NCBI GenBank assembly: GCA_024398875.1
Contig: JAKSIJ010000006.1
Coordinates: forward strand, 59,802-123,801
DNA: 64,000 nucleotides
Direction of reading: 5' to 3'
Origin: Fibrobacter sp.
GTDB taxonomy: Bacteria; Fibrobacterota; Fibrobacteria; Fibrobacterales; Fibrobacteraceae
The position numbers were made by a program, and so were the translations under genes. Below, piece after piece: positions 1,980-36,426 of the stretch. Every line of letters starts with the position of its first letter. The first letter of the stretch is position 1. Below the pieces are notes generated by a model. The model searched no databases, had not been told where the DNA came from, and was given only the letters and a program-made list of their open reading frames with translations.

Positions 1980-4091
1980 CTAGTAAATAAATAACATCTC
2001 GCGATACTTAGGTAAGGGCCAGCAATCGTCGGGAACCACTTTCTCCAACCCATCCACCACCTTGCGGAGGTCCGCCACAGCGGCGATGATGTCTTCGTGG
2101 GAGCCCTTCAAGGCCTCTTCCATCTTGGCGATGTTTTCCATCAAGTTGTTGCACCCTTCGCCGAGAGTCTTGGCGTAAGCGTCCAACCCAGGGAAACCCT
2201 GATTCAAGGCCATTTCATTTGTCTTTAATGCCTTGGAGTAGGCCTCCACCACCTTCGGGAGAATCACGTTCTTCGCGAGGTCACGGGCGATTTCGCCTTC
2301 GATGTGAATGCGCTTGTGGTAATCCTCGCTGTTCACCTCGTAGCGGGATTCCATTTCGCGGCGGTTCATGACGCCGTACTTTTCGAAGAGGGCGATGTTT
2401 TCTTCCTTGGTCAGAGCCTGCAGCGCATCCATGGTGGTGCAGATGTTGGGGAGTCCGCGGCGTTTTGCCTCTTCCACCCATTCGTCAGTATAGCCGTTAC
2501 CGTTGAAGAGCACGCGCTTGTGTTCCTTCACAATCTTCTGGAGGATTTTCTGTAAGCCGGTGTGGAAGTTTTTCTCGTCCAGCTTTTCCAACTGTTCGGA
2601 AATCATGTCGAAGGCTTCCGCCACAATCGTATTTAGAACAACGTTGGGCTCGGAGCAGCTTTGGCTACTGCCTGGTGCGCGGAACTCGAACTTGTTGCCC
2701 GTGAATGCAAATGTGCTGGTACGGTTGCGGTCCGTGGCGTCGCGAGGGAGTGGCGGCAGCATGTCGGCACCTATGCGCATGGCTCCCGCCTGCTTGCTGG
2801 ATTTGGGAACTCCCTGCTCCAGCTGTTCAATCACATCCATCAGCTGATCGCCCAAGTACATGGAGACAATGGCTGGAGGCGCTTCGTTTGCACCCAGGCG
2901 GTGATCGTTACCAGCGCCAGCACATGTCATGCGGAGCAGATCCGCGTGAGTATCCACAGCATACATGATTGCACACAACGTTGTAAGGAACACTGCATTC
3001 TGGTGGGGGTCCTTCCCCGGATTCAGAAGGTTCCCCTTACCGTAGGAAATGCTCCAGTTGTTGTGTTTGCCACTGCCGTTCACGCCGGCGAAGGGCTTCT
3101 CGTGCAGCAGGCAAACGAGGCCATAGCGGTCGGCCACATTGCGGAGAGTTTCCATGATGAGCATGTTGTGGTCGCAAGCCAGGTTCACATCCTCAAAAAT
3201 CGGAGCCAGTTCGAACTGTGCGGGAGCCGCCTCGTTGTGGCGAGTCTTGGCCGGAATCCCCAGCTTCCACAATTCCACCTCCACCTCATTCATAAAATTC
3301 AGAATGCGGGTGGGAATGCTACCGAAGTAGTGGTCGTCCATCTGCTGATGCTTGGCAGGAGTGGCGCCAAAGATGGTGCGGCCCGCCTGGTACAAGTCCG
3401 GACGTTGCAGGTAGAAGCGTTTATCGATGAGGAAGTATTCCTGTTCGGCGCCCAGCGTCACCGTAGTCTTCTTGGGGCTCGCCTTGAAGCAAGTCATGAG
3501 GCGGCGGGTAGATTTGGAAAGGGCCTGCAGGCTGCGAAGGAGCGGTGTCTTCTTATCGAGGGCCTCGCCCGTGTAGCTGCAGAATGCCGTGGGGATGCAA
3601 AGCGTCGCACCATTGCCATGGCGCTTGATGAAGGCAGGGCTGGTGGGGTCCCAGGCGGTGTAGCCTCGGGCCTCGAACGTAGAACGGAGACCGCCACTGG
3701 GGAAGCTGGAGGCGTCGGGTTCTCCTACAATGAGGTTCTTGCCCGAAAGCACCATGATGGCCTTGCAGCCACTGGGTTCAAGGAAGGAGTCGTGCTTTTC
3801 GGCGGTGGAGCCCGTCAGCGGCTGGAACCAGTGGGTAAAGTGGGTGGCACCGCGATCCATGGCCCACTTCTTCATGGCATGAGCCACATCGCCAGCGATG
3901 TTCGGGTCCAGAGCCTCGCCCTCGTCGATGGTGGCCAGAAGCTTTTCACAAATGTCCTTGGAAAGGTAAGTGCGCATGGCGTCGGCGTTAAAGACGTCTT
4001 CGCCGTAGAATTGCACATTCACCGGTTCGGCAGGTTTGATGGAACTGGCGGGTGCGGTGGCGATATCGTAGATGGCGGTATTTCTGTTCAT
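1980..4091 (-). CDS. glnA: Glutamine synthetase type III
   Basis: 703 aa with THFTHWFQPLTGSTAEKHD, GEPDASSFPSGGLR, EQEYF, HEKPFAGVNGSGKHNNW, RLGANEAPP, FTGNKFEFRA. Confidence 0.97.
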   Translation of the reverse strand: MNRNTAIYDIATAPASSIKPAEPVNVQFYGEDVFNADAMRTYLSKDICEKLLATIDEGEALDPNIAGDVAHAMKKWAMDRGATHFTHWFQPLTGSTAEKHDSFLEPSGCKAIMVLSGKNLIVGEPDASSFPSGGLRSTFEARGYTAWDPTSPAFIKRHGNGATLCIPTAFCSYTGEALDKKTPLLRSLQALSKSTRRLMTCFKASPKKTTVTLGAEQEYFLIDKRFYLQRPDLYQAGRTIFGATPAKHQQMDDHYFGSIPTRILNFMNEVEVELWKLGIPAKTRHNEAAPAQFELAPIFEDVNLACDHNMLIMETLRNVADRYGLVCLLHEKPFAGVNGSGKHNNWSISYGKGNLLNPGKDPHQNAVFLTTLCAIMYAVDTHADLLRMTCAGAGNDHRLGANEAPPAIVSMYLGDQLMDVIEQLEQGVPKSSKQAGAMRIGADMLPPLPRDATDRNRTSTFAFTGNKFEFRAPGSSQSCSEPNVVLNTIVAEAFDMISEQLEKLDEKNFHTGLQKILQKIVKEHKRVLFNGNGYTDEWVEEAKRRGLPNICTTMDALQALTKEENIALFEKYGVMNRREMESRYEVNSEDYHKRIHIEGEIARDLAKNVILPKVVEAYSKALKTNEMALNQGFPGLDAYAKTLGEGCNNLMENIAKMEEALKGSHEDIIAAVADLRKVVDGLEKVVPDDCWPLPKYREMLFIY

Positions 4092-4215
4092 AATCTTCGC
4101 TGGACTCCCGCACTGCGTTCGAAAGTGACCGCATGGGGAATTTCTTCGAGGGCAAAGTTAGCAAGGAGGAAGATGCCGGGCACGGGGGAAAATGGGCTGT
4201 TTTCGCCTGTTTTCA

Positions 4216-4258
4216 TTACATTTTTGTAAATATCATCTATTTTATTACATTTTTGTAA
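4216..4258. promoter_or_regulatory. Two identical palindromic boxes TTACA-TTTT-TGTAA, candidate operator/UAS
   Basis: Exact copies at 4216-4229 and 4245-4258 (29-bp period) in the glnA/regulator divergent region. Confidence 0.55.
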
Positions 4259-4306
4259 AGTAAGTAAGAAAAATATGTATATTTTTAGTGTCTAGATCCT
4301 TCATAC

Positions 4307-4322
4307 GGCATATTCTGTGCCT
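4307..4322. promoter_or_regulatory. Candidate sigma54 -24/-12 site (GG-N10-GC on both strands)
   Basis: Minus strand AGGCAC-AGAAT-ATGC and plus strand CGGCAT-ATTCT-GTGC, compared with consensus TGGCAC-N5-TTGC. Confidence 0.45.
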
Positions 4323-4326
4323 ATTC

Positions 4327-4394
4327 AGGATGACACGAGGGCGGAAAACTGCCTCAAACGCTAACCAGTTCAAGGATGACACGAGGGCGGAAAA
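4327..4394 (+). repeat. 22-bp exact direct repeat AGGATGACACGAGGGCGGAAAA x2
   Basis: Copies at 4327-4348 and 4373-4394 with a 24-nt spacer, ending 6 nt before ATG 4401. Confidence 0.9.
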
Positions 4395-4400
4395 TACCGT

Positions 4401-5537
4401 ATGCCGAGAGATTTGAATTTCCAGTCCGTCTACAGGGACATCGCCAACACGCTGAATTCCGTTCGGCGGTGTAGCGAGCAGTCCGCCCAAATCCAGCACA
4501 TCCTGAAAAACGCCTTCGAAAGTCTGGAGGTCGCCCACGAAAAGGAGTGCGAGCATCTCCGGAACATCGTAGAGGGAACCCCCGGCGACCTCATCGGCAA
4601 CACACGGGAGATGCAGGACGTCCGGGAGCAGGTGCAGCAAATTGCAGGCACTGAGGCGACACTTCTATTGCGCGGGAATTCCGGCACCGGCAAGGAATAC
4701 ACCGCCCGAACCATCCATCAGCTTTCGGACCGCAAAGAGAAGCCCTTCGTGATTCTGAACTGCGACGCGCTCAGCACGCTCCCCGGCGGCAATTCCTTCG
4801 AGAGCGAGCTGTTCGGGTACGAGCGCGGCGCTTTCGCCGGCGCCATGAGCAGGCACATCGGGAAGGCGGAGCAGGCAAGCGGCGGGACCCTCTTCCTGAA
4901 CGAAGTGGCGGACCTTCCCGCCGCGGCGCAGACAAAGCTGTTGCAGTTCATTCAGGACCGCAGCTTCAGCCGACTGGGAAGCAACATCGTCCAGCGCGCA
5001 GACATCCGCATCATCGCGAGCACGGGCAAGAATCTGGAAAGCCTCATCCAAGAGGGCCGCTTCCGCGAAGACCTCTTTTACCGCCTGAACATTTTCCAGA
5101 TTCACCTGCCCGACCTGGCGCAGCGCAAAACGGACATTCTCCTTTTGGCAGATTACTTTATCGGCAAGATGAATCTGAAATACGGGAAGAAGATTCTCCG
5201 CCTCAGTTCCCCCGCCATCGACATGCTCATGAGCTACCACTGGCCAGGTAACGTGCGGGAGCTGGAGAACTGCATCGAGCATGCATGCCTCGCCACAACA
5301 GACGTGGCCATCAACGCCTACGACTTGCCGCCTACGCTACAGACGGATGTGACCAGCGGAACAACGTTACTGCCCGAAGGCAGCGCCTCACTCACAACCC
5401 TGCTGGATAGCTACGAAAAAGAAATCCTCACCGAGGCGCTAAAGCGCAACGGCGGGAACATGAGCGCCGCGGGCCGAGAACTCTCCGTCAGCCCGCGGAT
5501 GATGCACTACAAAGTTAAGAAGTTCGGTTTGAGTTAA
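4401..5537 (+). CDS. Sigma54-interaction-domain (NtrC/NifA-like) Fis-family regulator with degenerate motifs
   Basis: GNSGTGKE Walker A, FESELFGYERGAFAGA, GGTLFLNE, RFREDLFYRLN, WPGNVRELEN, C-terminal Fis HTH. Confidence 0.9.
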   Translation: MPRDLNFQSVYRDIANTLNSVRRCSEQSAQIQHILKNAFESLEVAHEKECEHLRNIVEGTPGDLIGNTREMQDVREQVQQIAGTEATLLLRGNSGTGKEYTARTIHQLSDRKEKPFVILNCDALSTLPGGNSFESELFGYERGAFAGAMSRHIGKAEQASGGTLFLNEVADLPAAAQTKLLQFIQDRSFSRLGSNIVQRADIRIIASTGKNLESLIQEGRFREDLFYRLNIFQIHLPDLAQRKTDILLLADYFIGKMNLKYGKKILRLSSPAIDMLMSYHWPGNVRELENCIEHACLATTDVAINAYDLPPTLQTDVTSGTTLLPEGSASLTTLLDSYEKEILTEALKRNGGNMSAAGRELSVSPRMMHYKVKKFGLS

Positions 5538-5611
5538 ACCGCGACGCGGGAATTAACTACGACGCAGGCAGTTAACCGCGGCGGCGCTAGAATTAACCGC
5601 GGCGGCGCTGA
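5533..5611. repeat. Four degenerate 19-21-bp tandem units (TTAACCGCG...) between convergent genes
   Basis: TTAACCGCGGCGGCGCT is exact at 5572-5588 and 5593-5609, with two more degenerate copies upstream. Confidence 0.75.
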
Positions 5612-6309
5612 TAGCGGACGTAATAAAACAAACTCCAGGCACCCCACAGCATGCTAATTGTTGCACCAACGAGGGCGACAGTTTGCACAGTAGCCGCAAT
5701 GGATTCGCACTTCACCAGCACACCCCATTCCGACAAAAGATAGTTCCAGTCGTGGAAGCCGTATTCCATCTCGGCGCCAGTGCCGCCACTAGTGAGTTGC
5801 AACCGCATCACCAGCGCATCTGCAATGTAGGGGACCCAATCCATCAGGTTTTCGAAAGCCCACCAGAGGCCAATGGAAGCACCAAACAAATCCCGAGGCT
5901 TAATCCATAAAGCGAAGCAGAAAACCAGCGGCATGATGACTTGGAAAAGCGAGCCGCCAAGGCTCATCAACATGTGCCCGCCAAACAGCCCAAACAGCGG
6001 GTGCCCAAATTCATGAACGCCCAAATTCAAACTGTGGAGAAAATTCACAATCCAGGCGTCTGGCCCCTTGACAAACATAGTGATGGTGAAAATTGCAAAT
6101 ACAATCCACACTGCAATGCGGAACAACAGGCTCTGGGAAAATCCGTAAGCCCTGGGGTAAAAGAAGAATCGCAAAACCGGATGCCACGTATCGGGCTGGG
6201 AAAGTTTGCCTGCGAACCGAGTGGCGAAGGAATCACCAGAATGCACATCGCGACTCACGTTCGTAATGCGCAATTGCACTTTGTCGGTAGGCTTCATTCC
6301 CTCGGGCAT
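5593..6309 (-). CDS. Membrane protein, M50B-like zinc metallopeptidase
   Basis: Transmembrane HEFGH (HExxH) and a downstream HDW motif. Start probably ATG 6309 or 6297 rather than 6393. Confidence 0.6.
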   Translation of the reverse strand: MPEGMKPTDKVQLRITNVSRDVHSGDSFATRFAGKLSQPDTWHPVLRFFFYPRAYGFSQSLLFRIAVWIVFAIFTITMFVKGPDAWIVNFLHSLNLGVHEFGHPLFGLFGGHMLMSLGGSLFQVIMPLVFCFALWIKPRDLFGASIGLWWAFENLMDWVPYIADALVMRLQLTSGGTGAEMEYGFHDWNYLLSEWGVLVKCESIAATVQTVALVGATISMLWGAWSLFYYVRYQRRRG

Positions 6310-6336
6310 GCGTGTAAAATAAATTATTTTTTTGTC

Positions 6337-7185
6337 GTGAAGCAAGAACCATCGACAAAATCCGGTGCTGTCAAGTCCGTCGTCAGTAATCAAGACGGCA
6401 TCTATAAGGATTTAGCCGAAATCGTCCAGAAATACGCAAGCACAAAATACCGCAGACCCATCGCAGACCATACACGTGAGGCTTTTGCGCAGGCGGAAAA
6501 ATTTGTGGATGCGTTTTACAGCGCAAATTCACAGCAGGCGATGGCTTCGCCGTTTATCGCGGGAACTCTGAACTCCGCGGGTCCCGTAAATATCGCGGGC
6601 CCCCGGGCCGTCATTCTGGATTCCGGCTGCGGCACGGGCGAAAGCACGCTGCATCTGGCAAAGAAATTTCCTGACATTCCTGTCATCGGGATTGACAAAT
6701 CCGCCGCACGCCTTACCCGCGGGGAAAATGGCGGCCGGGACGAACTCGCCCGAAATTTCGCGACTGCCGAACGGAACTGCCCACGAAACGCCTTCTGGAT
6801 TCGCGCCGAACTTCTCGATTTCTGGCGGCTCGCTCTGGAGAAAGTGCAGGCGGGCGAATGGGCCATTCCCTATCACGCCCTCTACTACCCGAATCCATGG
6901 CCCAAGCAGAGCGAGGCCACCCGCAGGTTTCATCTGCATCCCATCTTCCCCACACTGATGGCATTGGGCGAGACATTGGAACTCCGCACCAACTGGGAAA
7001 TCTACGCTCAGGAATTCAAGAAGGCTGCGGAAATTTTGGCAACTTTTTGCCCGACAGGTACATCCCCGGCGGCGCACCTCGTTGTCAAACTTTCAAGCTT
7101 CACACCAGATACGCCATGCACCGCCTTCGAACGCAAATACAGCGCCGCCGGGCAAACCCTCTGGCGCGTCATTTGCACAAAGTAA
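6337..7185 (+). CDS. trmB: TrmB-like SAM-dependent methyltransferase (tRNA m7G46 family)
   Basis: ILDSGCGTGEST, IGIDKS, YPNPWPK, LELRTNW. GTG 6337 is in frame; the extension to 5941 lies antisense to a real gene. Confidence 0.7.
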   Translation: MKQEPSTKSGAVKSVVSNQDGIYKDLAEIVQKYASTKYRRPIADHTREAFAQAEKFVDAFYSANSQQAMASPFIAGTLNSAGPVNIAGPRAVILDSGCGTGESTLHLAKKFPDIPVIGIDKSAARLTRGENGGRDELARNFATAERNCPRNAFWIRAELLDFWRLALEKVQAGEWAIPYHALYYPNPWPKQSEATRRFHLHPIFPTLMALGETLELRTNWEIYAQEFKKAAEILATFCPTGTSPAAHLVVKLSSFTPDTPCTAFERKYSAAGQTLWRVICTK

Positions 7186-11638: not shown

Positions 11639-13675
11639 TTAAAACCCCTGGGTGAATGTGAGCCGGTATTCTCGCCCCGGCATGGGGAAAGGCGAATAGG
11701 CGTTTCGATACGTTTCGTCCGTAATGTTTTCGACTGCAAAAACAAAGCGTGTTTGCGTATAAGGTGTAAAACCTAAAGCGGCACGATGGTTGGGCACCGC
11801 AGGCTGCTCCAGGCGATTTCCGCGGTCTTCATAAATTTTGGTGCGGTAGGAACTGGCCCAGGTAAAATCAAAATGGAAGGGCAACTGCAACTTGGCTTCC
11901 GTATAATAACTCTGCACAGGTTCACCAGGAAGATTCTTATCACGGTAAGCAACATCATCCGTGTGGTCCAAGGCCTTCTGAATCGTAGCCCCCATCAGCA
12001 CCTGCAAGAATTTCGCCGGATGACTTTCCAAGTTCAGTTCCAACCCGCGAATGCGAACCTCCCCCACATTCAAAGCCTTCATGAAAGCGCCGCTTGTAAC
12101 CCAGTAAATCCCGTTATCCACGGCGGTTTCGTAGTATGTTACCCGCAGTGTAGAAATTTTTTTGGGTGTAGAAGCGAAGAGGCCGCCCTCAAAGCGCAGG
12201 GATGTTTCCTCCTTCAAATCTGGATTGGAAACGACCCCCGGGTAGACGCCATACAATTCCATCAGTTGCGGCTGGCGATAGAAGCGCCCGAGGCTTATAT
12301 GCCCGCCAAAATAGCCCGCGGGCTGTGTCAGCAAAATCGCCCCGCGGTAAGAGTAGGAAGCGTCCCGATTGCTGGCGGTTTTCAACTTCTGCGTTGCAGT
12401 AGGGAGCACGAATTTTCCACCATCGATGTCGTCTTGCAATAGCTGGAGGGATGCCTCGCCCGAGGTAGCAAGCCAGCGAGTGATGTGGAAGTTCACCTCG
12501 CCTGCAGCATTTCCAGAATAGCGTTCCAGCGCCCACTCCCGAGAAGTTCCGCGGGCCTCCATGCGGTCGAAGCCGCCTGCAATCCGGAGCGTTGCCACAA
12601 GTCGCTCACCCAAATATTCCGCAGTTATTTCCGGCAGCAGATGATAGCCCGCAGCACCATACTCCAGATATTCTGTGGAGAAGTATCCGATGTGATCCAG
12701 CGGATAGTAAGAGTGGGAAACGTTCTTCTCAAAACGTCCCGAAAGGCCCGCCGTAAGCCACAGCCAGCCCAACAACTCTGGCGATTCCAGACGATAACTG
12801 AGGGTAGCATTTTCCCCCTCGTAGCCTGCAACTTTCGTCTGGAATTCTCCGCGGCCAGGATTTCCACCTTCGGCATACGCGCCGTTGAAAGCGAGCGTAG
12901 AGAAGGCGCCGTTCCCGTGCAAAATCCGAAGTTCCGCACTACCCGAATACTCCGTAAAATCTGCATTCTCCCGATTTGCCGTAAAGTCGTCATCCTTATT
13001 GTAGGGCGTTCCATTTTCACTCTTGAATTCATAGTCATTGTCGGAATGCCTGGCAGAAACTCCCGCCGTAAAGCCCACACTGTCTGTAATTGCGGAGTTA
13101 ATTTGGATTGCCGTCTCCCAGTAGTTGTGGCTTCCGTAAGCGGCGAGGAATTTACCCGACGATTCCTGGTTAGAAACTTTTGCGGACTTGGTAATGAAAT
13201 TTACAGCGCCGCCAACTCCCGAACCGCCAAATTTTACAGGCACACGATCCTTATAAACCTCAATTTTTTCAACCTGGTTCAAGTCAATTCGTCCCAAATC
13301 CACCGCACCACCGCTGCCGTCATTGAGAGGGACGCCGTTCACGCAAATCAAAATATCCTGGCCAGCAATTCCCCGAATGCTGATGGTCTGAAAACTCCCC
13401 ACGCCACCTTGGGAATGAGCCTCCACGCCTGTGAGAGAAGAAAGCAGTTCTGCCGCCGAAATGCCGCGGCCCTCCCATGCTTCCGGCGAAATTTCTTCAT
13501 AAGAAGATTGCTTTTGCGACGTTTCAAAAGTGTCAGCACCCGCAATCTCGCTTGCACCCAAATCACGAATAGGCCCATCTTCAGCAACAGCCAAAGAAAG
13601 CCATCCACACACAGGAAGACACAGACAAAGTAATCTACGGAATCCCGTAGTGGTTAAAGCCAACGTCTCTCGCAT
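11639..13675 (-). CDS. btuB: TonB-dependent receptor, probable cobalamin transporter
   Basis: Plug motifs ISIRG, NGVPLND, VEKIEVYK, GGAVNFIT; SNPDLKEETS; C-terminal Phe; B12 riboswitch upstream. Confidence 0.85.
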   Translation of the reverse strand: MRETLALTTTGFRRLLCLCLPVCGWLSLAVAEDGPIRDLGASEIAGADTFETSQKQSSYEEISPEAWEGRGISAAELLSSLTGVEAHSQGGVGSFQTISIRGIAGQDILICVNGVPLNDGSGGAVDLGRIDLNQVEKIEVYKDRVPVKFGGSGVGGAVNFITKSAKVSNQESSGKFLAAYGSHNYWETAIQINSAITDSVGFTAGVSARHSDNDYEFKSENGTPYNKDDDFTANRENADFTEYSGSAELRILHGNGAFSTLAFNGAYAEGGNPGRGEFQTKVAGYEGENATLSYRLESPELLGWLWLTAGLSGRFEKNVSHSYYPLDHIGYFSTEYLEYGAAGYHLLPEITAEYLGERLVATLRIAGGFDRMEARGTSREWALERYSGNAAGEVNFHITRWLATSGEASLQLLQDDIDGGKFVLPTATQKLKTASNRDASYSYRGAILLTQPAGYFGGHISLGRFYRQPQLMELYGVYPGVVSNPDLKEETSLRFEGGLFASTPKKISTLRVTYYETAVDNGIYWVTSGAFMKALNVGEVRIRGLELNLESHPAKFLQVLMGATIQKALDHTDDVAYRDKNLPGEPVQSYYTEAKLQLPFHFDFTWASSYRTKIYEDRGNRLEQPAVPNHRAALGFTPYTQTRFVFAVENITDETYRNAYSPFPMPGREYRLTFTQGF

Positions 13676-13723
13676 TCAGCCTCAAAGTTGCGGCATAACG
13701 CTTTGCGCCATGCCCGTGGAGCC

Positions 13724-13945
13724 TTACAGTTCTTCTGACTCGGGAATCATCCTACTTCCAGCCCCTTCACATCTGGCTTCGCAGTTGCCTGCCCGCCAAA
13801 CATTGGTTTTTGCTGGTTTCGTCCTCCCTTACAGCGGCGGGACCGTTCCCGAATTTGCCTTGGCGTTTTGCCAGTTGCAGCACGGGATTCTCTTACAAAG
13901 TAGGCCGGCGATTCACAAACCGCGACACCCCACCTTGCAGCCTTT
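13724..13945 (-). ncRNA. Cobalamin (B12) riboswitch
   Basis: Minus strand reads AGAGAATCCCGTG...TTCGGGAACGGTCCCGCCGCTGTAAG...GAGTCAGAAGAACTG, the hallmark B12-element segments, about 50 nt upstream of btuB. Boundaries are approximate. Confidence 0.85.
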
Positions 13946-35346: not shown

Positions 35347-36426
35347 TTAGAGAGACTGACGCTTTTGCTGCAGATAGAGATCGGCTAGCACCAACGCCGC
35401 CATACTTTCTACAATCACTGGAGCGCGAACAGCCACACAGGGGTCATGACGTCCTTTCGCCAAAAGTTCCCCATTCTCACCATCCCGACTAGCGGTCTTT
35501 TGAGATTGGGCAATTGTAGCCGTCGGCTTGAAGGCGATGCGGCAGAAGATATTCTCTCCATTGCTGATGCCGCCTACAGAACCGCCCGCATTATTCGTGC
35601 GGGTATGGAAGGCGCCATCAAAGAAGATTTCGTCATTATGCTCGCTACCCTTCATGCGGGCAGCCGCAAAACCGCTTCCGATTTCAAAGCCCTTGCTTGC
35701 CGGAATGGAAAGCATAGCTTGAGCAAGAAGCGCATCCAGGCGATCAAAAACGGGTTCGCCCAAACCAGCGGGTACATTCTTCACCAGAAGGCTCACAACG
35801 CCACCAATGCTATCCGCATTCTTCTTGGCATCTAAAATAGCCGCTTCCATCCGGGCAGAAGCATCTTTGTCCGGGCAACGAACCGCAGAAGCCTCAATAG
35901 CCTCGCGAGAAATCGCATCCGTTGTCATTGCAGGGCAATCTACATCGCCTACGGAACTGACCCAAGCCAGAAATTCCGTTCCTGCAACTTTTTCCAGCAA
36001 TTTCCGTGCCACCGCACCTGCGGCCACGCGACCGATGGTTTCGCGGGCAGAACTGCGGCCACCACCGCGATAATCCCTGAACCCATACTTCAAATCGTAG
36101 CTCAAATCCGCATGGCTCGGGCGGTACCATTTTTGCACATCGCTGTAATCGGCGCTGAGCTGGTCCTCATTGAAAACCACAAAACTGATGGGAGTTCCCG
36201 TGGTCTTCCCTTCAAAAACGCCAGAAAGAATCTTCACCTGGTCTTTTTCATTCCGAGTCGTAGTCACAGCACCTTGACCGGGGCGGCGGCGGTCCAGAAA
36301 TTCCTGAACATCCGCTTCTGTTAGGGGAATCCCTGCAGGGCAACCATCCACAACGGCCCCAACAGCGGGACCATGAGATTCACCCCATGTGGTTACCGTA
36401 AATAATTTTCCAAAGGAGCTAGACAT
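35347..36426 (-). CDS. aroC: Chorismate synthase
   Basis: TTWGESHG, RRRPGQ, GKTTGTPI, RPSHAD, GGGRSSARET, GGISNGE, GRHDPCV. Confidence 0.98.
   Translation of the reverse strand: MSSSFGKLFTVTTWGESHGPAVGAVVDGCPAGIPLTEADVQEFLDRRRPGQGAVTTTRNEKDQVKILSGVFEGKTTGTPISFVVFNEDQLSADYSDVQKWYRPSHADLSYDLKYGFRDYRGGGRSSARETIGRVAAGAVARKLLEKVAGTEFLAWVSSVGDVDCPAMTTDAISREAIEASAVRCPDKDASARMEAAILDAKKNADSIGGVVSLLVKNVPAGLGEPVFDRLDALLAQAMLSIPASKGFEIGSGFAAARMKGSEHNDEIFFDGAFHTRTNNAGGSVGGISNGENIFCRIAFKPTATIAQSQKTASRDGENGELLAKGRHDPCVAVRAPVIVESMAALVLADLYLQQKRQSL

Follow-up and report, generated by a model that had tools for sequence, protein, structure and literature searches.

A GAF-less, NifA-like regulator beside type III glutamine synthetase in Fibrobacter that lacks the sigma-54-contacting Thr and the Walker B Asp and probably works without sigma-54

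We analyzed a 64,000-nucleotide stretch of Fibrobacter sp. DNA (assembly GCA_024398875.1, contig JAKSIJ010000006.1, positions 59,802 to 123,801; hereafter the window), in which the open reading frame (ORF) at 4401..5537 (+) codes for a 378 aa regulator of the AAA+/HTH_8 type. The gene stands divergently to its conserved neighbor and presumed target, the gene for type III glutamine synthetase (GSIII, 703 aa, 1980..4091, −). The regulator consists of a helical N-terminus, an AAA+ domain of the sigma-54-interaction type (Pfam Sigma54_activat, PF00158, residues 64-235, E=6e-60), a lid (AAA_lid_14, residues 241-319) and a Fis-type DNA-binding domain (HTH_8, residues 339-375; 5415..5525, +) whose recognition region is invariant in a 30-sequence family alignment. 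Residues 1-63 (4401..4589, +) are predicted to form helices 7-20 and 24-58 and matched no domain in a Pfam search, in agreement with an earlier reading made from the sequence alone (the sequence-only reading), which had found no recognizable sensor domain in this N-terminus of about 60 aa. In the AlphaFold model (mean predicted local distance difference test score, pLDDT, of 74.5, with the AAA+ core mostly above 85), the two helices precede the standard AAA+ fold of bacterial enhancer-binding proteins (bEBPs), the activators of sigma-54 promoters.

Much of what makes a bEBP is present. The Walker A motif GNSGTGKE (residues 92-99; 4674..4697, +) is functionally canonical (GxxGxGKE), with its Lys and Glu retained; its two x positions are variable in the family. 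The Asn that partners the catalytic Glu (in LNCDAL), both Arg fingers (FREDL and YRL), and the sensor II Arg (WPGNVRELEN) are also in place, so that of the features of a canonical bEBP the PF00158 domain with Walker A, Arg fingers and sensor II was found complete. Two other defining features fail. In loop 1, GAFAGA (G143-A148; 4827..4844, +) has Ala146 (codon gcc, 4836-4838) at the position of the sigma-54-contacting Thr of GAFTGA, where Ser would be tolerated; in Walker B, TLFLNE (T163-E168; 4887..4904, +) has Asn167 (codon aac, 4899-4901) in place of the Mg-coordinating Asp, so that an Asn-Glu pair with an intact catalytic Glu168 replaces Asp-Glu. Alignments to ZraR, NifA, and FleQ equated A146 with the GAFTGA Thr and N167 with the Walker B Asp. 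All three motifs had been described, down to the two codons, in the sequence-only reading, and its description holds.

Between the two genes lie two copies of the dyad TTACA-N4-TGTAA: dyad 1, TTACATTTTTGTAA, at 4216..4229 on the GSIII side, and dyad 2, TTACATTTTTGTAA, at 4245..4258, 29 bp away. Of 32 Fibrobacter loci, 31 have the regulator divergent from GSIII, and in the other one the contig breaks off too soon. Each of the 32 intergenic regions contains the dyad exactly twice, at a distance of 29 bp or, in three loci, 28 bp. The half-sites are almost invariant and the spacers variable and A/T-rich. Across the loci GSIII is 88-95% identical, the regulator only 60-75%. No further copy of the dyad occurs in the 64-kb window with one mismatch allowed. 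Because of this conservation, the lack of other window copies, and the invariant HTH, the dyads are almost certainly the binding sites of the regulator, as judged from sequence. The tie between the regulator and GSIII, already proposed in the sequence-only reading, is thus backed by both synteny and operator dyads.

A protein with two hallmark residues altered, whose orthologs in other species have the canonical ones, might simply be encoded by a decaying gene or reflect an assembly or sequencing artefact. The same locus in a metagenome-assembled genome (MAG) from horse faeces (L001) encodes a protein with 98% identity. The window protein belongs to a 90% (species-level) cluster whose 25 members come from NCBI, ENA, and Logan assemblies, and one of these members is identical to it; GAFAGA and LFLNE occur together in all 15 variants listed, and since these come from independent assemblies, sequencing error is ruled out. 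Metagenome contigs from four runs, two identical to the window and two 95-97% alike over the gene, vary at neither the Ala146 nor the Asn167 codon, although they do vary at flanking synonymous sites (position 4832, codon of Ala144; position 4904, codon of Glu168). Compared with its counterpart in L001, the window regulator has a ratio of non-synonymous to synonymous substitution rates (dN/dS) of 0.056 (39 synonymous and 8 non-synonymous differences), against 0.041 for GSIII in the same comparison. The alignment of the 33 species-level orthologs has 149 near-invariant columns, and the window protein conforms in 147 of them; the two exceptions are D167N and H252Y. With an intact reading frame in addition, these results exclude decay or artefact, to which we give next to no credence. 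Across the clades with altered motifs dN/dS is 0.02-0.08, indicating strong purifying selection. The substitutions are therefore fixed in the species-level cluster but not in the genus, most of whose orthologs have GAFTGA and DE. Such orthologs had been expected, in the sequence-only reading, to go with strain-specific decay or sequence error; they exist, but fixation and purifying selection speak against both decay and error.

The best 120 database relatives are all from Fibrobacter (68-98% identity); 110 of them have GAFTGA, 7 GAFAGA and 2 GAFIGA, and LFLNE is confined to the window's own cluster. In a motif census of 33 species-level orthologs, window included, the loop residue is Thr in 17 (L002-L017, L020), Leu in six (L021-L025, L032), Ala in five (window, L001, L018, L019, L026), and Ile in five (L027-L031). 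The Leu/Ile clade also has DD in Walker B, Gly for the glutamate-switch Asn, and Gln for the sensor II Arg, and with dN/dS values of 0.025-0.075 it too is under purifying selection; L002 keeps the Thr but has DD as well. On a neighbor-joining tree rooted with Planctomycetota homologs (state T/DE/N/R at these positions), T/DE/N/R is ancestral, the Thr was replaced at least five times independently within the genus (by Ala, Ile, or Leu), and NE arose only in the window lineage. The 150 nearest 50%-cluster representatives are diverse bEBPs; 139 of them have Thr in the loop, three Ser and two Ala, and in Walker B 145 have Asp and not one has Asn. The repeated independent loss of the Thr points to a relaxed constraint on the sigma-54 contact, which, unlike the remainder of the protein, is unusually dispensable in this orthogroup. 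The double loss is not unique to Fibrobacter, as P0384, an unrelated representative of the bEBP family, has DAFAGA together with AE in Walker B.

The expected effect of each change can be read from PspF. The T86A variant keeps its ATPase activity and does not engage the sigma-54 closed complex, even in mixed rings; rings of wild-type and T86A subunits are inactive because adjacent intact L1 loops are needed (PMC4132715). In D107A the Vmax is 0.23 against 39.5 per min (0.6% of wild type) with Km values of 300 and 250 µM (PMC3419264), so that ATP still binds but is barely hydrolyzed. Variants of PspF at E108, also poor ATPases, form constitutive hexamers and can still remodel pre-opened complexes (PMC4132715). 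Some natural GAFTGA variants, such as GAFSGA, are considered functional, and a Thr to Pro change inactivated Bradyrhizobium japonicum NifA (PMC4641369). In the literature searched, no bEBP with Ala, Leu, or Ile at the Thr position was reported active, and a search for the string GAFAGA found no papers.

A −24/−12 promoter should lie downstream of the binding sites of a canonical bEBP. A search for GG-N10-GC on both strands of the 32 intergenic regions found none that is conserved, and at none of the 32 loci does such a promoter follow the dyads. Individual matches in the window were rejected. The sole exact match to TGGCAC-N5-TTGC (35997-36011, −) is inside the chorismate synthase gene aroC (35347-36426, −) and was put down to chance; AGGCAC-N5-ATGC at 4308-4322 (−) is missing from the 98%-identical L001; other sigma-54 promoter matches from the searches were at chance level only.

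What is conserved instead resembles a different kind of promoter. About 30 nt from dyad 1 towards GSIII there is a TGCAAA, TGCCAA, or TGCCCG box, followed after 16-17 nt by a TAnnTT(T) box that is often preceded by TG. The distance of the latter from dyad 1, about 55 nt, is the same in all clades, both those with canonical and those with altered AAA+ motifs. In the window, the box TGC-TAACTTTG at 4153..4163 (−) is the putative −10/−7 element of a GSIII promoter of the primary-sigma type, and TGCCCG at 4177..4182 (−), 16 nt upstream of TAnnTT at the position of the TGCAAA/TGCCAA box, is a weak putative −35-like element. Upstream of Fibrobacter ORFs, TAnnTTTG is more frequent than expected (34 occurrences versus 14.7 in shuffles), and we take it to resemble the −7 element of Bacteroidetes-type primary-sigma promoters. 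If the TAnnTT box is the −10 element, the dyads are centered near −74 and −103. Towards the regulator gene, most loci have a TATATT box 19-33 nt past dyad 2 (4278..4283, +, in the window). As this box is the putative −10 element for transcription of the regulator itself, dyad 2 would abut or overlap the −35 position of that promoter. A literature search for Fibrobacter promoters or transcription start site data found none, and the RNA-level material covered consisted of metagenome and metatranscriptome contigs from mixed relatives, a kind of data that does not yield start sites.

These results bear on whether the protein is nonetheless a working sigma-54 activator that tolerates GAFAGA and NE and acts at promoters elsewhere in the genome. 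All its other catalytic and structural determinants are intact, Fibrobacteres genomes are reported, at the level of the phylum, to encode RpoN (PMC3372290), and other regulators of the sigma-54 type are known from F. succinogenes S85 (PMC3079729); no RpoN box was found in the 1.65 Mb examined. The tolerated GAFSGA variants and the remodeling by PspF E108 variants count on the same side, and compensating changes in the protein or in Fibrobacter sigma-54 may perhaps be proposed. Against this stand the behavior of PspF T86A and D107A, the lack of any Ala, Leu, or Ile bEBP reported active, the absence of Asn from Walker B in all 150 representatives, the missing −24/−12 promoter near the only conserved binding sites, and the relaxed constraint implied by repeated loss of the Thr. 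We consider continued activation of sigma-54 unlikely.

Alternatively, the protein could be a non-catalytic partner or brake that modulates a sigma-54 nitrogen regulon, either in mixed rings with an intact bEBP (as in HrpR/HrpS) or by competing for DNA sites. AAA+ rings do tolerate some defective subunits (PMC4132715), the oligomerization surfaces and Arg fingers are conserved, and F. succinogenes has other bEBPs that might serve. But neither the window nor any of the 32 loci contains a paralog, all of the best 120 database relatives are orthologs, the mixed PspF rings described above do not activate, and the protein comes with a conserved HTH and an operator pair of its own. This leaves a partner or brake role with a slim chance.

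The origin of the protein was traced by comparison with NifA-like proteins. No NCBIfam equivalog scored above its cutoff; the best model, NifA (TIGR01817), gave 308 bits against a cutoff of 528.85 over residues 15-309, and with this score, no GAF domain, and GSIII rather than a nif context as neighbor, the protein does not qualify as NifA. Residues 14-378 align at 44% identity, through the HTH, to P0135, a Planctomycetota protein annotated as NifA, in which the counterpart of residue 14 is residue 173, just past the GAF domain. The window N-terminus aligns to the linker between GAF and AAA+ (residues 173-218) of this 525-aa NifA-like homolog, and thus appears to be the remnant of that linker in a NifA-like ancestor. 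The orthogroup as a whole is marked by divergence from GSIII, a pair of dyads spaced at 28-29 bp, an invariant HTH, and the lack of a GAF domain, all of which the window shows.

A scan of metagenome contigs for tandem dyads returned at least 120 stretches, and among the matches listed all those like Fibrobacter are GSIII-regulator loci. Two informative matches come from outside Fibrobacter (dyad and sigma-54 promoter regions at L126 1029-1175 and L153 1677-2057). At L126, a GAF-AAA+ protein with GESGTGKE, GAFTGA, and LFLDE, whose relatives are 525-aa Planctomycetota proteins annotated as NifA, accompanies dyads at 1029-1071; a perfect TGGCAC-N5-TTGC lies about 90 bp past them, before a 274-aa ORF without a Pfam match, amtB, and a PII gene. 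At L153, a GSIII gene (72% identity) and dyads are followed by TGGCACgtggaTTGCA, likewise a perfect sigma-54 promoter of the form TGGCAC-N5-TTGC, just upstream of gltB. Two Firmicute-like loci with similar dyads near a RocR-like bEBP (L107, L158) were set aside as probably unrelated. Together with the P0135 alignment, the dyads and sigma-54 promoters of L126 and L153 suggest that the family was ancestrally a GAF-controlled, sigma-54-dependent activator of nitrogen assimilation that used the dyads as upstream activating sequence (UAS). They also point to the tandem dyads as a widespread, apparently undescribed nitrogen UAS. On this evidence the Fibrobacter branch would have lost the GAF domain, kept the linker helices, and dispensed with a sigma-54 promoter at GSIII.

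Among known systems, the protein fits, as far as its sequence can tell, the descriptive class of atypical EBP homologs (VpsR, TyrR/PhhR, NtrC of Rhodobacter capsulatus and Caulobacter, HupR, and NtrX), which like it combine a bEBP-type AAA+ core and an HTH with a compromised sigma-54 contact motif; a defective GAFTGA (here GAFAGA) together with a non-consensus Walker B (here NE) is what the class leads one to expect. VpsR of Vibrio cholerae, which lacks GAFTGA and has ND in Walker B, activates with sigma-70 (PMC6158489); Walker B is likewise altered to NE here and to DD in the sister Fibrobacter clade. The NtrC proteins of Rhodobacter and Caulobacter lack the loop and act at sigma-70 promoters, including that of glnA; in the Rhodobacter protein ATP binding is required and hydrolysis is not. 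Both serve nitrogen assimilation, as presumed for GSIII here, and a target promoter without −24/−12 and binding to upstream dyads, predicted in our case, are common to the class and the window protein. The differences are that atypical EBPs have GAFTGA deleted or heavily rewritten, against a single Thr to Ala change here, and an N-terminal sensor (REC, or ACT/PAS), against none here. Close orthologs of the window protein are moreover still canonical, so that the transition is visible within one genus. In its point substitutions, its lack of a sensor domain, and its graded orthologs within a genus it would therefore be unlike all atypical EBPs described.

Two further groups compare in part. With the GAF-AAA+-HTH proteins of the NifA type the window protein shares its best model match and the 44% identity to P0135; unlike them it has the Thr to Ala and Asp to Asn changes and no GAF domain, nif context, or adjacent sigma-54 promoter, and its presumed operator is TTACA-N4-TGTAA rather than TGT-N10-ACA. 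PspF (with PspA) and HrpR/HrpS (with HrpV) are, like it, AAA+ and HTH proteins without a regulatory domain, and this implies that they are controlled either by a partner protein or by their level of expression. They are, however, canonical ATPases that use GAFTGA at sigma-54 promoters, and they have partners in trans, while no partner gene adjoins the window regulator.

From all of this, we think it probable, though well short of certain, that the protein is a NifA-like nitrogen regulator without a GAF domain that binds ATP, hardly hydrolyzes it, and regulates GSIII and itself without sigma-54. Two residues needed for sigma-54 activation are lost and yet the gene is kept under selection beside GSIII, which makes function without sigma-54 likely. 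In the history that we propose, a GAF-containing, sigma-54-dependent NifA-like nitrogen regulator would have lost its GAF sensor in Fibrobacter, and the species-level lineage of the window would have lost the sigma-54-contacting Thr and the Walker B Asp as well. Dimers are expected to bind both dyads through the Fis-type HTH. The AAA+ domain presumably still binds ATP, as it has kept Walker A, both Arg fingers, sensor II, and the catalytic Glu, and hydrolyzes it poorly, so that it would serve as a nucleotide-dependent oligomerization module and not as a motor; it would also be unable to hold on to sigma-54. From about −74 and −103, the regulator would control a GSIII promoter without −24/−12 elements, with a sign and a sigma factor that we infer, and it is probably a repressor of its own gene, where dyad 2 adjoins the −35 position of the putative promoter. 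As no sensor domain remains, the nitrogen signal must come in trans, with PII or GSIII as possible sources, or by way of how strongly the regulator itself is expressed.

Several points weigh against this reading of the regulator as sigma-54-independent. Most orthologs keep the full set of GAFTGA, DE, N, and R under selection, from which it follows that those species still make some use of activation through sigma-54, and that the conserved architecture at GSIII alone does not prove independence from sigma-54. We infer the primary-sigma promoter of GSIII from conserved boxes that fit the E. coli consensus poorly and that a simple sigma-70 scan does not call. The change to Ala is less drastic than the deletions in TyrR or Rhodobacter NtrC, Asn can sometimes still ligate Mg, and targets of the dyads beyond the matches listed may exist. 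The conclusion of the sequence-only reading that the protein is probably not a canonical sigma-54 activator is accordingly strengthened by PspF T86A and D107A and by the 32 loci without a −24/−12 promoter, and tempered by the canonical state of most orthologs. Of the roles suggested there, the protein may have that of a repressor, a sigma-70-type regulator, or a heteromeric partner.

More tentatively, and with somewhat less than even confidence, we propose that the GSIII-linked regulators record a conversion within one genus, from a sigma-54-dependent NifA-like activator to a sigma-54-independent regulator of a primary-sigma promoter. The GAF domain would have been lost first, then, repeatedly, the Thr, and then ATPase residues, and the window AAA+ domain would have become an ATP-binding, hydrolysis-poor switch that senses nucleotides and governs assembly. 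Conversions of sigma-54 activators to the sigma-70 type (TyrR, VpsR, alphaproteobacterial NtrC) are so far known from their end points only. Here canonical, half-changed, and heavily changed orthologs share an operator and a target gene in closely related species, so that the order of events and the function of intermediates are directly testable with back-mutations. The analysis also names a candidate regulator and a cis-element for type III glutamine synthetase in Fibrobacter, a major fiber degrader of gut and rumen; the transcriptional control of GSIII in this genus was not addressed in the literature searched. It carries a warning as well, as annotation pipelines call all these proteins "sigma-54-dependent". 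The findings, which are sequence evidence throughout, are relevant to the field of sigma-54 and AAA+ regulators and to rumen nitrogen metabolism.

The leader of the regulator gene is variable. Just before the start codon, the window has a 46-bp tandem duplication (4327-4394) that holds a 22-nt core, AGGATGACACGAGGGCGGAAAA, twice. It is polymorphic among strains: two metagenome runs are as the window and one has a single copy, while another run and L001 have an unrelated 34-nt GC-hairpin leader in its place. In ten loci (L002-L004, L006, L007, L010, L011, L016, L017, and L019), the motif TCTCTCCTAGA followed by a GC-rich hairpin lies between dyad 2 and the regulator start. This motif is absent from the window and has no Rfam match; together with its hairpin it may be a cis-regulatory RNA or attenuator. 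An Rfam search of the window, its intergenic region, and five orthologous loci returned nothing relevant to the regulator locus, so that neither the 22-nt repeats nor the leader hairpins fall into a known RNA family. Elements of the type (C)AGGATGAC / GTCATCCTG, often in inverted pairs, occur in the leaders of L017, L024, L028, L029, and L032 and at window 4327-4394, and look like a small REP-like repeat family.

Immediately past the 3' end of the regulator gene, two copies of a direct repeat, AATTAACCGCGGCGGCGCT, lie at about 5571-5611 and overlap the 3' end of a convergent membrane-protein ORF (5593-6393, −). Farther along the window, a cobalamin riboswitch (13708-13935, −; 64 bits) is upstream of a 678-aa TonB-dependent-receptor-like ORF (11639-13675, −), and the same arrangement is present in L003.

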